Source: Escherichia coli
Lineage (GTDB): Bacteria > Pseudomonadota > Gammaproteobacteria > Enterobacterales > Enterobacteriaceae
Reading direction: 5' to 3' (one strand)
DNA length: 64,000 nucleotides
Assembly: GCF_003334785.1 (NCBI RefSeq)
Contig: NZ_QOWV01000007.1
Under the pieces are notes generated by a model. It was not told the DNA's origin. It saw nothing but the letters and a program-made list of their open reading frames with translations, and did not search any database. Shown piece after piece: positions 18,349 to 60,326 of the stretch. Made by a program: the position numbers and the translations under genes. Within the stretch, counting starts at the first letter, position 1; the number at the start of each line of letters is the position of its first letter.

Positions 18349-18485
<137 letters not shown>

Positions 18486-24676: not shown

Positions 24677-27211
24677 TTAATTACTACCAAACATATCCTT
24701 GATCCAACCGGCTACACCGTCGCTGTCTTTCTGCTCTTGCTGAGCAGGTTGCTGTTGCGGCTGTTGCTGCGGCTGAGAAGACTGATCAAACGGATTGCCT
24801 GACGGCTGCTGCTGCATCTCGCTCTGCTGGCACAGCGATTGCGGATCGCTGGTCCAGACCGGCAAGATACGCATGCCACCGCTGCAAACAAAGTTGCCGT
24901 CGTAGTCCACGCCCATATCTGCAATATCTTCTGGCGGAACAAGATTCAGCGGCGTTGGCGTCTGGTTAGCCAGATAACGCTGATAAATCGACATTGCCCC
25001 GCTGGCACCATACAGTTTGGTCGGCTGGTTGTTATCACGGCCGACCCAGGTGATGGTCACCGTGCTGCCGTCAATGCCCGCAAACCAGGTATCTACGTTA
25101 TTGTTGGTAGTCCCTGTTTTCCCTGCCAGATGCAGGTTCGGGTATTTCGCCCCAAGCTGACGACCCGTACCGCGTTGTACCACCTGCTGCATGGTCCATA
25201 GTGTCAGATACGCCGCCTGCGCCGGAACAGCGCGTTCCGCCTGCGGGAAGCTCTGATACAGCACTTTGCCATCTTCCGCGATTACCGAACGCAGCGCAGA
25301 AAGCGGTGCACGGTTACCACCGCTGGCGATGGTCTGGAATGCCTGCGCCACTTCGATTGGCGTTAAGTTCAACGCCCCCAGCAGCATTGCCGGAACCGGA
25401 TGCAACTGATCTTTCGGTACGCCCAGTTTAATCCAGGTCTCCGTAACCGCAGGCAGCCCCAGCGCCATCCCCAGATTTACCGTCGGCACGTTCATCGAAC
25501 GGGTCAACGCATCCACCAGCATCACTCTGCCGCTTTCGCTATAACGACGGTCATCATTCTGCGGTGACCAGACCTGGCCATTCGGCTGACGCAGCGCAAT
25601 TGGCGCATCCGCAATCCACGTATTCAGACGATAGATTTTCGGCTGGCTTAAGGCCGTCAGATAAGTCGCTGGTTTTGCAAGGGAACCAATCGAACGACGC
25701 GCCTGCATCGCACGGTTGTAGCCCGCAAACTGCGGCTCAGAACCTCCGACCATCGCACGAACTTCACCACTAAAGCGGTCGACGACCACAATCGCAGTTT
25801 CAAGATCGCTCAACTTACGCTGTTTCTTCAGTGCCGGAATGCCTTCCACGGCGGCTTTTTCTGCCGCGTCCTGGGCCACCGAGTCAAAGGTAGTGAAGAT
25901 CTTCACGCCGGAGAGATCTTTTACCTTATCGCCCAGTTTTGCCTGCAGCTCCTGACGCACCAGTTGCATAAAGGCTGGCTGAGGAGAGATCACCCCACCG
26001 CGCGGCTGAACCCCCAGCGGACGGGCACTCAACATGTCATAGAGTTCTTGATCAATAATCTGTTGCTGTTGCAGCAGACGCAGCACCAGATTACGTCGCT
26101 CCAGCGCCAGTTTTGGGTTACGCCACGGGTTGTAGATGGACGCCCCTTTCACCATACCGACTAACAGCGCCTGCTGGTCGAGGCTTAGCTCTTCTACCGG
26201 GCGACCAAAGTAATACAAGCTTGCCAGCGGGAAGCCGCGGATTTCGTTGTCGCCGCTCTGACCGAGATACACCTCGTTCATATACAGCTCAAGAATACGG
26301 TCTTTGCTGTAACGCGCGTCCATGATCAGCGCCATGTAAGCTTCGTTCGCTTTACGCCAGTAAGAACGCTCGCTGGAGAGGAACAGGTTTTTCACCAGCT
26401 GTTGCGTCAGCGTACTCGCACCCTGTACCGTGCGTCCGGCGGTCAGGTTTGCCAGCACCGCACGTCCGATTGAGTAGAGACTGATTCCATCATGCTCGTA
26501 AAAATGACGGTCTTCTGTCGCCAGCAAAGTATCCACCAGCAAATCCGGGAAACCACTGCGCGGCACAAACAGACGCTGCTCACCGTTTGGCGAAGAGATC
26601 ATGGTGATCAGACGCGGATCAAGACGGAAGAAACCGAACTGACGGTTGTTCTCCATATTGACGATCGTCGCCAGATGATCGCCATCAAAGGTCAGACGCG
26701 CGCGCACCTGTCCTTCTTTACTGTCCGGGAAATCAAACGGACGGCGAATCATCTCAATGCTGTTGGCCTGCACGGTAAATTCGCCAGGACGGGTCATTTT
26801 CGACACCTGACGATACTGGGTCGCCTCCAGCAGCTTCACCATCTCGTTCTTGCTGATGGTCATGTCTGGCTCAAGATTGACCATTCGGCCATAAACTGCC
26901 GCAGGCAGTTGCCAGACCTTGCCATCAATACGGCTACGAATTTTTTGATCGAGATAAACGCCGTAAATGGCGATCAGCACGGCAAAAACGATAGCCAGTT
27001 TTAGCAGTAGCCATAGCCAGCCGCGTTTGCCACGAGGCTTACGCCCTTTGCCTTTGCCCTTACCTTTGCGCGGCATCGGTTCTTCATCCTCATAGTCATC
27101 ATAATCGTCGTAATCATCGTCATCTTCGTAACGACGACGGCTTACCTTTTGTTTGACCGGACGCGTCGGTTTCCCTTTGCGTCCAATTGGCTCGCGGTCA
27201 TTCCCGGCCAT
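24677..27211 (-). CDS. mrcB: Penicillin-binding protein 1B (bifunctional transglycosylase/transpeptidase)
   Basis: The known 844-aa protein starts at [14 protein letters not shown] (27211); the ORF track starts 5 codons upstream. Has SxxK-type transpeptidase domain. Confidence 0.96.
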
Positions 27212-27308
27212 GCTTTTTCTCCGCAATATTCAGGCGCAAAAGCCCGATTTTCTGTTCTTCTGTTACAAGACAGAAGAAGATATCTCTCAAAATTTGTGCT
27301 CGATCGGT

Positions 27309-27397
27309 CCCCTCTCCCTTGAGGGAGAGGGTTAGGGTGAGGGTGAACGTGCGCGCTGATGCCCTCACCCCGGCCCTCTCCCACAGGGAGAGGGAGA
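27309..27397. repeat. Two inverted boxC-like GC-rich palindromic repeat units in the hrpB-mrcB intergenic region
   Basis: cctctccc-ttg-agggagagg, then gggtgagggtga ... gccctcaccc, then ccctctccc-aca-gggagaggg; nested inverted repeats typical of intergenic boxC-type repeats. Confidence 0.7.
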
Positions 27398-27406
27398 AAA
27401 CCAACC

Positions 27407-29836
27407 TTACGAATACTTTTTCGTCCGTCGCGTCGGTGCAGTATTTGCCGGGTCGTCCGGCCAGACATGTTTGGGATAACGCCCTTTCATCTCTTTTTGC
27501 ACCTCACGGTACGCTCCTTTCCAGAAGGCGCTCAAATCTCGTGTGATTTGTAATGGCCTTTGGGCAGGTGAAAGCAACTCCAGCACCAGCGGCACGCGCC
27601 CCTGGGCGATCGTCGGATTGGTGGCCTCGCCAAACATCTCTTGCATTCTCACCGCCAGCGCGGGCGGGTTATCTTCATGATAACGAATGGCGATCCGGCT
27701 TCCCGTCGGCACAGTGTAATGCGCAGGCAATTCACTATCCAGACGTTGCTGCATTCCCCAATCAAGTAATCCGCGTAGTGCCTGATAAATGTCGAGTGAT
27801 TTCAGGCCGCGTAGTGAATGTACGCCAGTCATATGTGGCAGCAGCCACGTTTCCAGCGCTGCCAATAAACTTTCATCATCAACCGCTGGCCAGTCATATT
27901 CCGGCAACCACTTTGCGGCGCATAACAAACGCAAGCGTAGCTGTTCCGCTTCCGCCGTCCAGTTGAGCACGCTTAAACCTTTATCACGGATGCCATTAAG
28001 CATCGCCTGATGCAACTCGTCTTCTGACGGTTTCGCCAGCGGCTGCACTTTCACCGTCAACTGACCGATTTGTAGCCGACGCCAGGCTTTCAGCGTACCT
28101 TGCGCGTCATCCCACTCCACAGTGTCAGACTGCTGTACCAGCTGCGGGCAGCGTTGTACTAACTCATCAATATCGACCAGCAGCGCCAGTAAAATCCGCG
28201 CATCCGGCGAGGCGCTGCCCTGCAATAATAACGGTGCGATCAACCATTCGTGGCGGCTTAGCGCGTCGTTGGCATCGAGCATCGCTCCCATGCCGTTTGC
28301 CAGTTGATAGCGTCCATCTTGCCCACGGCGACGAGCAATGCGATCGGCAAACGCCCCGGCAAGTAGCGGCGCGATAAGCGAACTGTCTGCCTCACCGCCA
28401 CGTACGTTTAAGCGTTTTAACAGTTGCTGACTACGTTGCTGCCAGGCTGGTTGATTGCGCGAAAACGCCACGCCCAGGTCACTATTGCCCATCCGTGGCG
28501 GCTCTTCGAGAATGGCGGCAATTTTTGCCGCGGTAGCAGCTTCGTCGTCGTTCTTCGCGCTAACCAGCATTGCCGCTAAACGCGGATCGTTACCCAGCGC
28601 TGCCATTTTTTGCCCTTGCGCACTAAGCCGTTCACCCTCCAGTGCCCCCAGCATTTGTAACAGACGTTTCGCGGCCAGTAGATTCACTACTGGCGGTTGA
28701 TCCAGCCAGCTCATCTGCGCCGGATCGCTGCATCCCCATTGCAGTAATTCCATCAGCAAACCGGAAAGATCGCTTTGTAAGATCTCCGGTTCACTTTGCG
28801 CCGCGGCGCGTTCTGCTTGTTCTTTGGCGATTAAATGCAGGCTGATACCCGGCTCCAGACGCCCGGCGCGCCCGGCACGCTGCGTCATGGATGCCTGGCT
28901 AACGCGTTGAGTAATCAGTCGCGTAAGCCCCGTGCGCGGATCAAAACGCGCCACACGCTCCTGGGCACAATCCACCACCAGACGAATACCTTCAATGGTT
29001 AAACTGGTTTCAGCAATATTGGTCGCCAGCACCACTTTACGCATCCCTTGCGGTGCCGGGAGGATCGCTTTTCGCTGATCGTTCAGCGACAACGCGCCAT
29101 ACAGCGGGCAGAGCAATACATCACTGCCGATGCGCGAAGCCAGTTGTTCCTGCACACGCTGAATTTCTCCGACGCCAGGTAAAAATAACAGTAATGATCC
29201 GCTTTCCTGACGCAGCATTTCAGCGGTGGCTACCGCAACGGCATCGTCAAAACGCTGATGCGCGGGCAGCGGTAAATAACGGCGTTCAACCGGAAACGAG
29301 CGCCCTTCTGAGATGACGACAGGCGCTTCTGGCAGCATTTGCTGCAAGCGGTCGTTGTCCAGGGTAGCCGACATAATCAGCAGTTTAAGGTCATCACGCA
29401 GACCTTGTTGCACATCGAGTAACAGCGCCAACGCCAAATCCGCCTGCAAGCTGCGCTCATGAAATTCATCAAGGATCACCAGTCCAACACCGCTCAGTTC
29501 CGGGTCACGCTGGATCATGCGCGTCAGCACGCCTTCGGTAACCACTTCCAGGCGGGTATTCGGCCCGACGCAGTTTTGCGCACGCATCCGGTAGCCAACG
29601 GTATCGCCTGGCTTTTCGTTAAGCAGCTCCGCCAGCCGTTGCGCGACGTTACGCGCCGCCAGACGACGCGGCTCCAGCAGGATAATTTTCCCGTTAATGC
29701 CGGGATGCGCCAGCAGTTGCAGCGGCAGCCAGGTTGATTTCCCGGCCCCGGTCGGCGCACTTAATAATACCTGCGGCGCACAATCGAGAGCGGTAAGTAA
29801 TTCAGGTAAGACGGCAGCAACGGGCAACGACGACAC
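27407..29836 (-). CDS. hrpB: ATP-dependent DEAH-box RNA helicase HrpB
   Basis: The ORF track starts at 29881; the known 809-aa protein begins VSSLPVAAVLPELL at a GTG (29836). Walker A GAGKST and DEFH motif present. Confidence 0.92.
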   Translation of the reverse strand: MSSLPVAAVLPELLTALDCAPQVLLSAPTGAGKSTWLPLQLLAHPGINGKIILLEPRRLAARNVAQRLAELLNEKPGDTVGYRMRAQNCVGPNTRLEVVTEGVLTRMIQRDPELSGVGLVILDEFHERSLQADLALALLLDVQQGLRDDLKLLIMSATLDNDRLQQMLPEAPVVISEGRSFPVERRYLPLPAHQRFDDAVAVATAEMLRQESGSLLLFLPGVGEIQRVQEQLASRIGSDVLLCPLYGALSLNDQRKAILPAPQGMRKVVLATNIAETSLTIEGIRLVVDCAQERVARFDPRTGLTRLITQRVSQASMTQRAGRAGRLEPGISLHLIAKEQAERAAAQSEPEILQSDLSGLLMELLQWGCSDPAQMSWLDQPPVVNLLAAKRLLQMLGALEGERLSAQGQKMAALGNDPRLAAMLVSAKNDDEAATAAKIAAILEEPPRMGNSDLGVAFSRNQPAWQQRSQQLLKRLNVRGGEADSSLIAPLLAGAFADRIARRRGQDGRYQLANGMGAMLDANDALSRHEWLIAPLLLQGSASPDARILLALLVDIDELVQRCPQLVQQSDTVEWDDAQGTLKAWRRLQIGQLTVKVQPLAKPSEDELHQAMLNGIRDKGLSVLNWTAEAEQLRLRLLCAAKWLPEYDWPAVDDESLLAALETWLLPHMTGVHSLRGLKSLDIYQALRGLLDWGMQQRLDSELPAHYTVPTGSRIAIRYHEDNPPALAVRMQEMFGEATNPTIAQGRVPLVLELLSPAQRPLQITRDLSAFWKGAYREVQKEMKGRYPKHVWPDDPANTAPTRRTKKYS

Positions 29837-53144: not shown

Positions 53145-53244
53145 GCCGGATGCGGCGTGAACGCCTTATCCAGCCTACAAAATTGTGCAAAATCAATGGA
53201 TTGCACAGCTAGCGTAGGCCTGATAAGCGTAGCGCATCAGGCAG
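53145..53244. repeat. REP elements downstream of gcd
   Basis: gccggatgcggcgtgaacgccttatccagcctac and inverted gtaggcctgataagcgtagcgcatcaggc flanking a short palindromic spacer. Confidence 0.85.
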
Positions 53245-57728: not shown

Positions 57729-60326
57729 TTAAACCGCAGTCTGGAAAATCACCCCATCGGCTTTCTCGGTGTACTGAGAAAGCTGGTTGAAGTTCAGATA
57801 ACGGTAAGTATCAACGGCTGTTTTATCTACCTGCGCCACGTAGGTCTGGTACTCTTCCGGCGTCGGCAGTTTGCCAATCAGCGCCGCAACAGCCGCCAGT
57901 TCCGCAGAAGCCAGGAAGACATTCGCGCCAGTACCCAGACGGTTCGGGAAGTTACGGGTAGAGGTGGAAACCACCGTTGCACCGTCCGCCACACGCGCCT
58001 GGTTACCCATACACAGGGAACAGCCAGGGATCTCGATACGCGCACCACTCTTACCGAAGACGCTGTAGTAGCCTTCTTCGGTCAACTGTGCGGCGTCCAT
58101 ACGGGTTGGCGGTGCCACCCACAGGCGGGTCGGCAACTGACCTTTATGCGCATCCAGCAGTTTACCCGCAGCACGGAAGTGACCGATGTTGGTCATGCAG
58201 GAACCGATAAACACTTCGTCGATCTTCTCACCCTGTACCGCAGACAGCGGACGCGCGTCATCCGGGTCGTTCGGAGCACACAGGATTGGCTCTTTAATAT
58301 CCGCCAGATCGATGTCGATCACTGCCGCGTATTCCGCATCTGCATCGGCTTCCAGCAGCTCAGGATTCGCCAGCCATTTTTCCATGCCCTGAATACGACG
58401 TTCCAGGGTACGACGATCGCCGTAACCTTCCGCGATCATCCACTTCAGCAGGACGATGTTAGAGTTCAGGTATTCGATGATCGGTTCTTTGTTCAGCTTG
58501 ATGGTACAACCAGCGGCAGAACGCTCGGCGGACGCATCGGTTAGCTCAAAGGCCTGCTCAACTTTCAGATCCGGCAGACCTTCAATTTCCAGGATGCGGC
58601 CAGAGAAGATGTTTTTCTTGCCTTTCTTCTCAACGGTCAGCAGACCTTGTTTGATCGCATACAGCGGAATAGCGTGTACCAGATCGCGCAGGGTGATGCC
58701 CGGCTGCATTTTGCCTTTGAAGCGCACCAGAACGGATTCCGGCATATCAAGCGGCATTACGCCAGTTGCGGCAGCAAACGCCACCAGACCAGAACCCGCC
58801 GGGAAAGAGATACCGATCGGGAAACGGGTATGGGAGTCACCACCGGTACCGACGGTATCCGGCAGCAGCATACGGTTCAGCCAGGAGTGAATGACGCCGT
58901 CACCCGGACGCAGCGACACACCGCCACGGTTCATAATGAAGTCCGGCAGCGTGTGGTGCGTGTTCACGTCAACTGGCTTCGGATACGCCGCGGTGTGGCA
59001 GAAAGACTGCATCACCAGGTCAGCCGAGAAGCCCAGGCACGCCAGGTCTTTCAGTTCATCACGGGTCATCGGGCCGGTGGTGTCCTGGGAACCTACAGAA
59101 GTCATTTTCGGTTCACAGTACGCGCCCGGACGAATGCCTTTCACGCCACAGGCACGGCCTACCATTTTTTGCGCCAGCGAGAAGCCGCGATCGCTCTCAG
59201 CGACATCTTTCGCCTGACGGAACACATCACTGTGCGGCAGACCAAGTGCTTCACGCGCTTTGGTGGTCAGGCCACGCCCGATAATCAGCGGAATACGGCC
59301 ACCAGCACGCACTTCATCAATCAGCACGTCGGTTTTCAGTTCGAAGGTCGCCAGCAGTTCGCCGGTTTCGTGGTTACGCACTTCACCTTTGTACGGGTAA
59401 ACGTCAATCACGTCGCCCATGTTCAGGTTAGAGACGTCGACTTCGATTGGCAGTGCACCCGCGTCTTCCATCGTGTTAAAGAAGATGGGTGCAATTTTAC
59501 CGCCGAGGCACAAACCACCGCCGCGTTTGTTCGGCACATGTGGAATATCATCGCCCATAAACCACAGAACGGAGTTAGTGGCGGATTTACGCGAAGAACC
59601 CGTACCCACAACGTCACCGACGTACGCCAGCGGGAAACCTTTCTGTTGCAGAGCTTCGATTTGCTTGATCGGACCAACAACACCAGGCTGGTCTGGCTCA
59701 ATACCTTCACGGGCGTTTTTCAGCATCGCCAGCGCGTGCAGTGGGATATCCGGGCGTGACCACGCATCCGGTGCCGGAGAAAGGTCATCGGTGTTAGTTT
59801 CGCCAGTGACTTTGAAGACAGTAACGGTCAGTTTTTCAGCCAGCGCCGGGCGATTCAGGAACCATTCGGCATCCGCCCAGGACTGCATAACCTGCTTCGC
59901 ATATTCGTTGCCTGCTTTCGCTTTCTCTTCTACGTCATAGAAGTTATCGAACATCAGCAGCGTGTGAGAAAGTGCTTTGGCAGCAATAGGTGCCAGTTTG
60001 GCATCATCCAGCGCGTCGATCAGCGGATGAATGTTGTAACCACCCTGCATGGTGCCCAGCAGTTCGATGGCTTTTTCCGGAGTCAGCAGAGGGGATTTGG
60101 CTTCGCCTTTCGCGATAGCAGCCAGGAAGCCTGCTTTGACATAGGCGGCTTCATCGACGCCTGGGGGAACACGGTTGGTTAACAGATCTAACAGGAATTC
60201 TTCTTCGCCCGCGGGCGGGTTTTTCAGCAGCTCTACAAGTGCGGCCATTTGGTTTGCATCCAGGGGTTTGGGCGCAATCCCCTCAGCGGCACGCTCAGCT
60301 ACGTGCTTACGGTATTCTTCTAGCAC
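57729..60326 (-). CDS. acnB: Aconitate hydratase B (bifunctional aconitase / 2-methylisocitrate dehydratase)
   Basis: The ORF track starts at 60479; the known 865-aa protein begins (M)[21 protein letters not shown] at a GTG codon (60326). Confidence 0.96.

Follow-up and report, generated by a model that had tools for sequence, protein, structure and literature searches.

BoxC is a repeat family of Escherichia coli that has been known for 30 years and still lacks an accepted function. Petrillo et al. (2008, PMC2267715) treat it as a recognised family of 32 copies of 56 bp with a predicted shared structure, and the same family has also been named PIT (potential intrastrand triplex), the TMECO triplex motif and the HPG1/HPG2 G-quadruplex motif (PMC4666352; PMC5100583). 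Holder et al. (2015, PMC4666352) defined the TMECO motif as CCCTCNCCC-N3-6-GGGNGAGGG-N3-GGGNGAGGG and stated that this element had first been named BoxC and later PIT; the equivalence of the three names rests on that paper and on Petrillo et al. (2008, PMC2267715), and the older sources on BoxC/PIT (Bergler 1992, Bachellier 1996, Hoyne and Maher 2000/2002) are given here as cited in later work. In the present study, we analysed a BoxC pair located between hrpB and mrcB (PBP1b), at positions 27309-27397 of a 64,000-nt stretch of E. coli DNA (NCBI RefSeq assembly GCF_003334785.1, contig NZ_QOWV01000007.1); 'the window' refers to this whole stretch throughout.

The behaviour of BoxC DNA has been described from several sides. 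Single-stranded oligonucleotides of both unit types, A and B, form a very stable class II purine-motif intrastrand triplex, as judged from circular dichroism (CD), 18 imino signals in nuclear magnetic resonance (NMR) and a melting temperature of 70-82 C; together with the complementary strand they form an ordinary duplex, and in vivo footprinting of another copy with dimethyl sulphate (DMS) revealed no protection and no stable non-B structure (PMC4666352). In K+, a single-stranded unit instead adopts a G-quadruplex in vitro, and CD changes that depend on K+ and Mg2+ led Kaplan et al. (2016, PMC5100583) to propose a switch between G-quadruplex, hairpin and duplex. According to the summary of Hoyne and Maher given by Holder et al. 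(PMC4666352), the elements block DNA polymerase in vitro, have no promoter or terminator activity and do not affect RNA polymerase or conjugation. Holder et al. themselves found inverted A+B pairs at five sites of strain MG1655, no functional class common to the genes that flank TMECO copies and more variability between strains at TMECO loci than at control loci, with paired sites often collapsing to a single hairpin (the 'palindrome effect'); their report has the motif in Proteobacteria only, with none on phages or plasmids (PMC4666352).

Among other repeat systems, REP/BIME elements (PU) resemble BoxC in being short extragenic palindromes at gene ends. REPs are present in hundreds of copies, and their sequence (GCCGGATAAGGCG...CGCCGCATCCGGC type) is unrelated to that of BoxC. 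The RNA hairpins of REPs block 3' exonucleases and thereby define mRNA 3' ends. REPs have a mobilising enzyme family, RAYT, and the protein partners gyrase, IHF and Pol I, whereas we know of no mobilising enzyme or protein partner for BoxC. The Correia elements of Neisseria (CREE) and other MITE-like repeats (MITE, miniature inverted-repeat transposable element), such as ERIC/IRU, RUP and BOX, share with the BoxC composite described below a length of ~100-150 bp, inverted ends and polymorphism between strains. They are co-transcribed with their neighbours, and their long RNA hairpins are processed, which alters transcript ends. In Correia elements, the terminal inverted repeats are well defined and the duplicated target is TA; the BoxC copy studied here has inverted arms, in the form of its two units, but no target duplication is evident, and no direct duplication is visible at the junction between filled and empty alleles, which is blurred by divergence. 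Nor is a transposase partner evident for BoxC, although no search was aimed at one.

Judged by its sequence, the feature between hrpB and mrcB is a back-to-back BoxC repeat pair that has been catalogued previously at the identical position of E. coli K-12. It shares with BoxC/PIT/TMECO/HPG the sequence pattern, the inverted pairing of A and B, the intergenic position and the multi-copy spread, and no difference is apparent in the element itself. Window positions were converted to MG1655 coordinates (x) by the relation window = 27211 + 164730 - x, checked on the ends of hrpB and mrcB. The first two of the 23 MG1655 copies in Table 1 of Holder et al. (2015, PMC4666352) are then the two units of this pair: no. 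1 (CCCTCTCCCTGTGGGAGAGGGCCGGGGTGAGGGC, type B, 164,547-164,580, plus strand) corresponds to window 27394-27361, and no. 2 (CCCTCTCCCTTGAGGGAGAGGGTTAGGGTGAGGGT, type A, 164,631-164,597, minus strand) to window 27310-27344. Kaplan et al. (2016, PMC5100583) list the same units as the G-quadruplex motifs HPG2 no. 5 (type B) and HPG1 no. 6 (type A). Since both sequence and coordinates agree with the published catalogue, the identification is certain, and the element at this locus is known from the literature down to its coordinates. What is added here beyond the catalogues is the recognition of a ~110-bp composite as the repeated unit, the allele frequencies in 5,426 genomes, the polarity given by outgroups and the coincidence with Term-seq 3' ends.

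The pair spans window 27310-27394 and consists of two ~35-nt units in inverted orientation, with their G-rich tails facing each other across a 16-nt spacer; the plus strand of window 27300-27405 reads tcgatcggtc-CCCTCTCCCTTGAGGGAGAGGGTTAGGGTGAGGGT-gaacgtgcgcgctgat-GCCCTCACCCCGGCCCTCTCCCACAGGGAGAGGG-agaaaaccaacc. The type A unit (27310..27344, plus strand; loop 2 = TTA) has the structure CCCTCTCCC-TTGA-GGGAGAGGG-TTA-GGGTGAGGG-T, and the type B unit (27361..27394, minus strand; loop 2 = CCG) is CCCTCTCCC-TGT-GGGAGAGGG-CCG-GGGTGAGGG-C. Between the tails, the spacer GAACGTGCGCGCTGAT (27345..27360) makes up the loop of the long hairpin. Homology with other copies carries the element slightly further, to ~27296-27404, by way of conserved flanks on the type A side (GTGCTCGATCGGTC; 27296..27309, plus strand) and on the type B side (27395..27404; minus-strand sequence TTGGTTTTCT), the latter of which is paired with 27302-27309 in the predicted fold of the RNA. 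Applied as a regular expression, the published motif matches both units (L001 2548-2580, plus strand, equal to window 27362-27394; L001 2599-2632, minus strand, equal to window 27310-27343). Both also agree with the G-quadruplex motif (G3+ N1-7)x4, GGGAGAGGGTTAGGGTGAGGG and GGGAGAGGGCCGGGGTGAGGG each having four G3 runs and 3-nt loops.

A repeat finder recovered perfectly complementary arms in either unit, namely CCCTCTCCCT/AGGGAGAGGG at 27310-27319/27322-27331 (10 nt, 100%) and CCCTCTCCC/GGGAGAGGG at 27374-27382/27386-27394 (9 nt, 100%). The units are joined by a 27-nt inverted repeat of 81% (27317-27343/27362-27388), the outer stretch 27310-27319 can also pair with 27385-27394, and a family of 12-nt direct repeats, AGGGWGAGGGNN, lies inside the element. 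An earlier annotation of this DNA from its letters alone (the sequence-only reading) had described these palindromes as a BoxC-like repeat pair; the palindromes are all there, and the likeness turned out to be identity with two catalogued copies, rows 1 and 2 of the table cited above. The same reading had regarded small open reading frames (ORFs) across the element as spurious. Six such ORFs cross it, at 27142..27468 (-), 27198..27404 (-), 27187..27546 (+), 27153..27335 (+), 27149..27322 (+) and 27359..27553 (+), and none is annotated in RefSeq NC_000913.3, a record which, as examined, carries no repeat_region features for either BoxC or REP. The element should be annotated as BoxC/TMECO so that these ORFs are not called genes. 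A search of Rfam at a permissive E-value returned only sub-threshold look-alikes of microRNA precursors (best 29 bits vs a threshold of 74), and nothing within 27296-27404 resembles the REP consensus of the type given above, as generally known.

The copy count that the sequence-only reading had called for revealed a multi-copy element. With blastn, the 106-nt element was found at 58,388 places in 5,332 of the 5,426 complete E. coli genomes (median 11, maximum 26 per genome), almost all of them chromosomal; being multi-copy across genomes, it is a dispersed repeat. Five other intergenic regions of MG1655 carry ten further copies. When the MG1655 copies are compared, every type A unit has ..C(A/G)GTC before it and every type B unit a T-rich run ending in TTCY (TTTTCT, TTTTCC or GTTCTGCC), and three other tail-to-tail pairs likewise combine a type A (TTA) with a type B (CCG) unit. 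The A-spacer-B composite of the hrpB-mrcB interval aligns with those at fepB/entC, ygfF/gcvP and alx/sstT over ~115 columns with a mean column identity of 84%, the spacer being ~11 nt shorter here than the homologous 26-27-nt spacers of the three other composites. Because this alignment includes the spacer and the flanks, the repeated unit is, on alignment, the whole ~110-bp quasi-palindrome (window ~27296-27404), and the feature at hrpB-mrcB is read as one composite copy, its type A and type B units arranged tail to tail. Solo units look like composite halves.

The pair is predicted to fold strongly as RNA, and alternative hairpins, which the sequence-only reading had proposed, are supported by both RNA and DNA folding; the cruciform that it also named finds no support in vivo, where DMS footprinting of another copy gave no stable non-B structure (PMC4666352). 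In the sense of the genes (minus strand), the RNA is predicted to form a single long hairpin with interruptions, at -74.2 kcal/mol (z = -8.4), and in the antisense (plus-strand) orientation it reaches -67.4 kcal/mol (z = -6.6); in neither case did any of 200 shuffles fold as well. DNA parameters give ~-33 kcal/mol (z = -5.3) on both strands, with each unit alone forming a 9-bp hairpin. These tools model Watson-Crick pairs only. The 21-nt hairpin pattern did not occur in any of 100 shuffles of the window. As neither the pattern nor the fold energy is matched in shuffles, the palindromes are far beyond chance.

The element separates two genes that are both encoded on the minus strand, with the end of hrpB at 27407 and the ATG of mrcB at 27211. 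In the order of transcription, the hrpB stop is followed by 12 nt, unit B, the spacer, unit A (as its C-rich complement) and, after ~98 nt, mrcB. We compared this arrangement between strains by megablast with window 27120-27560 as the query. All 5,426 of 5,426 genomes matched, only 3,536 of them at a coverage of at least 80%; allele fractions were estimated from rows taken at even steps down the ranking (5,436 matching records), where BLAST joins split pieces into one place. On this estimate, ~60% of E. coli genomes carry the full element (full-length match), ~5% carry remnant alleles with one small hairpin (90% coverage) and ~33-35% carry empty alleles (75% coverage), in line with the presence/absence polymorphism that the sequence-only reading had suggested looking for.

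The alignment of alleles shows how the element is lost. The full pair is present in K-12 and O157:H7. Strain PE164 lacks exactly one 12-nt repeat (AGGGAGAGGGTT), a 12-nt slip deletion, while DEC9B retains only CCCTCTCCCACAGGGAGAGGG and 14EC017 only CCCTCTCCCTTGAGGGAGAGGG, as the outcome of independent deletions of 64 and 63 bp between internal direct repeats. AZ159 and MB50 are without the element, and their intergenic region is ~102 bp shorter. As these four derived allele classes show, the element decays by deletions between its own short direct repeats.

As outgroups, we used the hrpB-mrcB loci of Salmonella enterica and Citrobacter freundii (the Klebsiella locus was unusable owing to different synteny). 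In the alignment, BoxC is not present at this locus in either species. The ~90 nt that precede the ATG of mrcB are conserved throughout, across the three genera and every E. coli allele; this mrcB upstream region (27212..27295, minus strand; AAATTTTGAGAGAT...GGAGAAAAAGC before the ATG) lies outside the repeat. On the other side, the hrpB stop codon (27407..27409, minus strand) marks the insertion boundary in the alignment of E. coli alleles and outgroups. Alleles with the element have TAA here; the empty E. coli allele, Salmonella and Citrobacter have TGA. Since the outgroups and the empty alleles lack BoxC and have the TGA stop in common, the composite is most simply read as a dispensable, derived insertion at the 3' end of hrpB that lies apart from the conserved region upstream of mrcB.

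Directly after the hrpB stop, in the place of window ~27296-27406, Salmonella enterica (L128 2671-2725; GCCAGATAAGGCG..CGCCATCCGGC) and Citrobacter freundii (L129 999-1040; GCCTGATAAGCG..GCGCCATCAGGC) have a palindrome resembling REP. When the 47-nt Salmonella palindrome was searched against the E. coli genomes, no BLAST match was obtained at E <= 0.01, the query being too short for a 28-Gb database. By comparison of these alleles, the 3' site of hrpB accepts different extragenic palindromes by lineage, namely BoxC, a REP-like palindrome or neither.

A transcript end within the interval had been set beforehand as a test of the sequence-only reading, and one is on record. The Term-seq data of Adams et al. 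(2021, PMC7815308, Supplementary files 1 and 3) contain an RNA 3' end at MG1655 164,636, given on the plus strand of that genome and hence at window 27305 on the minus strand; it has an average read count of 987, is classed as 'orphan', appears in the M63 glucose sheet only, has the sequence context ...CCCTCTCCCTCAAGGGAGAGGGGACC[G]ATCGAGCACA (Supplementary file 1) and lies 94 nt upstream of the mrcB start (Supplementary file 3). The end maps to the foot of the predicted hairpin, 5 nt beyond the element on its 3' side (...GGGAGAGGGGACCG-3'). A search of the same table showed that five other BoxC or BoxC-like copies, in either orientation, have Term-seq 3' ends that follow the 3' arm of their CCCTCNCCC/GGGNGAGGG hairpin by 3-5 nt, at MG1655 3781065 (+), 3959467 (-), 847200 (-), 4231270 (-) and 632098 (+) (PMC7815308, Supplementary file 1). 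In copies that are read in the G-rich orientation, the 3' end falls between the hairpin and the third G-strand. Adams et al. (2021) do not appear to link these ends to BoxC, as far as a check that was not exhaustive goes.

We consider it likely that the composite BoxC copy inserted between the hrpB stop and the mrcB upstream region is a selfish or neutral structured repeat, with an RNA hairpin that marks a 3' end and with no need for it on the part of mrcB. At the DNA level, such a quasi-palindrome would render the locus prone to deletion. Transcription of hrpB through the element would yield an RNA hairpin of ~40 bp and -74 kcal/mol with no U tract, and this hairpin would stop 3'-to-5' exonucleases, leaving a stable RNA 3' end a few nt past the element, whereas expression of mrcB would be independent of it. 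The 3' ends at BoxC copies may thus have been trimmed back to a very stable hairpin, just as REP elements and processed Rho-dependent ends are trimmed to theirs. In this role, BoxC would do the job of REP elements elsewhere, with the REP-like palindrome of Salmonella and Citrobacter occupying the same spot.

Several points weigh against this explanation. Exonuclease stalling is what we infer, and hairpin- or factor-dependent termination would yield the same 3' end. The end at 164,636 comes from one data set and one growth condition (M63) at a low read count (987), and the Rho-region table of Adams et al. (2021, PMC7815308) has no entry for hrpB or mrcB, so that an upstream termination event has no candidate there; the TERMITe supplements have no entry for either gene. 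Besides, divergence blurs the boundaries between filled and empty alleles, with no clean target-site duplication or exact insertion boundary at the junction, and the REP label of the Salmonella and Citrobacter palindromes is a resemblance by eye only.

Of the other explanations, the one that survives best places the main effect of the element on DNA. Holder et al. (2015, PMC4666352) proposed that a transient intrastrand triplex or hairpin stalls forks during replication and creates a hot spot of deletion and rearrangement, possibly selected for variation. The triplex that single-stranded units form in vitro and the raised variability around TMECO loci (PMC4666352) speak for it, as do the four derived allele classes seen here, with two independent one-hairpin deletions and a 12-nt slip. 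Yet the deletions are confined to the element and leave the flanking genes untouched, instability is to be expected of any quasi-palindrome with internal direct repeats, with or without a triplex, no triplex was detected in vivo (PMC4666352), and the adaptive benefit is a proposal only. As the main effect we regard this as rather unlikely, although it is compatible with, and not exclusive of, a selfish or neutral insertion whose hairpin marks an RNA 3' end.

Less probable still, if worth some consideration, is an intrinsic or factor-assisted terminator of hrpB that insulates mrcB from read-through. The GC-rich hairpin does begin 12 nt beyond the hrpB stop and has an RNA 3' end at its foot, and RegulonDB, as quoted by Kaplan et al. 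(2016, PMC5100583), has hrpB and mrcB as separate single-gene operons. However, the hairpin is not followed by a U tract (GACCGAUCGAGCACAAAUUUUGAG), nor by any U/T run that an intrinsic terminator would call for (GACCGATCGAGCAC). A consensus scan for promoters and terminators likewise found none in the hrpB-mrcB interval, the only terminator-like site within 27000-27700 being an unrelated one at 27652. Reporter tests, in the summary by Holder et al. (PMC4666352), detected no termination by PIT/BoxC, strains without the element still have the two genes separate, and no Rho region is listed for hrpB/mrcB (PMC7815308).

In a regulatory switch for mrcB (or hrpB), as put forward for HPG1/HPG2 by Kaplan et al. 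(2016, PMC5100583), the G-rich strand would alternate between the states of G-quadruplex, hairpin and duplex, and transcription would be modulated thereby at initiation or elongation. The four G3 runs with 3-nt loops in each unit, the ion-dependent CD changes of the motifs and the listing of the locus at 111-150 nt upstream of mrcB (PMC5100583) fit this idea, and the sequence-only reading, too, had considered an effect on mrcB expression. For this, we found no support: about a third of E. coli genomes, as well as Salmonella and Citrobacter, are without the element, though mrcB and the ~90 nt before it are conserved independently across these genera. Moreover, NMR identified the oligonucleotide structure as a triplex rather than a G-quadruplex, DMS footprinting in vivo is that of an ordinary duplex, the flanking genes have no common functional class, and earlier reporter work, in the summary by Holder et al., saw neither promoter nor terminator activity (PMC4666352). 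Natural alleles that lack the element, together with an mrcB upstream region conserved on its own, make a role in PBP1b regulation unlikely, and the switch is the least credible of these three alternatives. As for a palindrome due to chance or particular to this locus, without relatives, it is refuted by the 58,388 places in 5,332 E. coli genomes, the homologous composites at other loci and the lack of any equivalent in shuffles, and we give it practically no credence.

Beyond enterobacteria, a scan of one genome per species with GGGAGAGGGNNNGGGTGAGGG as the key returned at least 120 loci, and all matches listed were in non-enteric genomes. Ascertainment is biased because the core itself served as the search key, which did not demand the complementary C-rich arm. 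Among the matches listed are Afipia, Pseudolabrys, Hyphomicrobiales, Contendobacter, metagenome-assembled genomes (MAGs) of other Gamma- and Deltaproteobacteria, an unclassified MAG (27 contigs) and a Gracilibacteria MAG. The complementary C-rich arm lies upstream in most of the listed copies, at least 92 of which fit the strict TMECO regular expression, and tail-to-tail pairs recur.

It is conceivable, if on balance doubtful, that the hrpB-mrcB copy belongs to a mobile element defined by its structure and spread across phyla and replicon types, from Alpha-, Gamma- and Deltaproteobacterial MAGs, in which the core is present many times, and viral contigs to conserved genes, in frame, of the 26%-GC Gracilibacteria, members of the candidate phyla radiation (CPR). 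If this were true, a conserved and so far unrecognised mechanism of mobilisation or recognition would have to act on the hairpin or triplex, and each insertion would create a ready-made RNA 3'-end hairpin that could be exchanged for REP at sites like the 3' end of hrpB. The wider-distribution observations concern the BoxC family and not the hrpB-mrcB locus. With six loci at which 3' ends follow the hairpin by 3-5 nt, a variable hrpB 3' site and the core on viral contigs and in CPR genes, the notion of a selfish insertion that supplies an RNA 3'-end hairpin is now directly testable; the same three lines argue against a role in PBP1b regulation.

On viral contigs of IMG/VR (L136-L255), at least 146 core matches were obtained, at least 78 of them with the full hairpin-plus-third-strand pattern, and the GC content ranged from 32 to 74% among the matches listed. 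Some of these contigs carry 7-9 copies each (e.g. L160-L162, UViG_3300033121_000767; L207-L209, UViG_3300013136_000015), with nine on one contig of 21 kb. Going by these matches, the core appears frequent on IMG/VR contigs, which are putative phage and could also be host DNA flanking prophages, unlike the statement of 2015 that the motif is not associated with phages.

In the MAG JANYBJ01 (isolate GL140_5_metabat_74_sub; L003-L030), the core is contained in a ~90-nt repeat on at least 27 contigs. This repeat falls into two subfamilies, in which the AT-rich sequence flanking the core on the left is conserved and another GC hairpin follows on the right (..GGGTGAGGGTTGCGGGCTCCGCCCGCGTTAG), and looks like a MITE-like family built around a BoxC core.

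The Candidatus Gracilibacteria MAG JALNXF01 (L077-L093), at 24-32% GC, holds at least 20 copies of the BoxC/TMECO core. At least 11 are situated, in both orientations, within and in frame with long ORFs that code 25 (UGA = Gly) alone keeps open and that have 12-49 in-frame TGA codons each, as in L088 8988-10451 (-), L082 1721-2959 (+) and L087 5349-6569 (+). These copies encode inserts of 12-13 residues, e.g. ALTLTLSQRERG, NPHPNPLPEGEG and SLSLWERVGVR, and no mention of BoxC-encoded peptides was found in the literature searched. Three of the host frames are genuine genes, for MiaB/RimO (E = 8e-117), SufS (E = 4.5e-127) and a GT4 glycosyltransferase, and the alignment of SufS with PDB 1t3i places extra residues exactly at the element. 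A further frame of 627 residues (L089 6113-7993, plus strand), which by eye is 23S rRNA methyltransferase-like, seems to hold several separate GC-rich inserts (ALTPTLSQGERE, SPSPQMEKGDGE, SPLHSMERGWGGG) and also a segment that resembles a DUF559/Vsr-like endonuclease by eye. The closest parallel for these Gracilibacteria copies, and for them only, are the Rickettsia palindromic elements (RPE), which are in-frame palindromic repeats inside conserved genes. RPEs measure ~100-150 bp, compared with ~36-39 bp for the Gracilibacteria copies, and differ from them in sequence and host; the BoxC copies of E. coli are all intergenic.

Finally, some minor features lie in the neighbourhood of the element or elsewhere in the window. 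A candidate sigma-70 promoter just downstream of the element (TTGAGA-17-TGTAAC) was rejected, as its -10-like hexamer is not conserved in Salmonella and Citrobacter. Nearer to mrcB, ~45-65 nt upstream of its ATG, an AT-rich hairpin, TTCTTCTGT-N6-ACAGAAGAA, occupies window 27255-27278. It is present in all E. coli alleles, its outer TTCTTC/GAAGAA arms are retained in Salmonella and Citrobacter with the inner part altered, and it possibly belongs to the leader or promoter region of mrcB as a genuine feature. REP-like motifs (GNCGGATAAGGCGTT) occur further away at 53160-53174 and, 85 nt apart between fhuB and hemL, at 18368-18382 and 18453-18467, the latter two (18368-18467) probably being an ordinary REP/BIME cluster.

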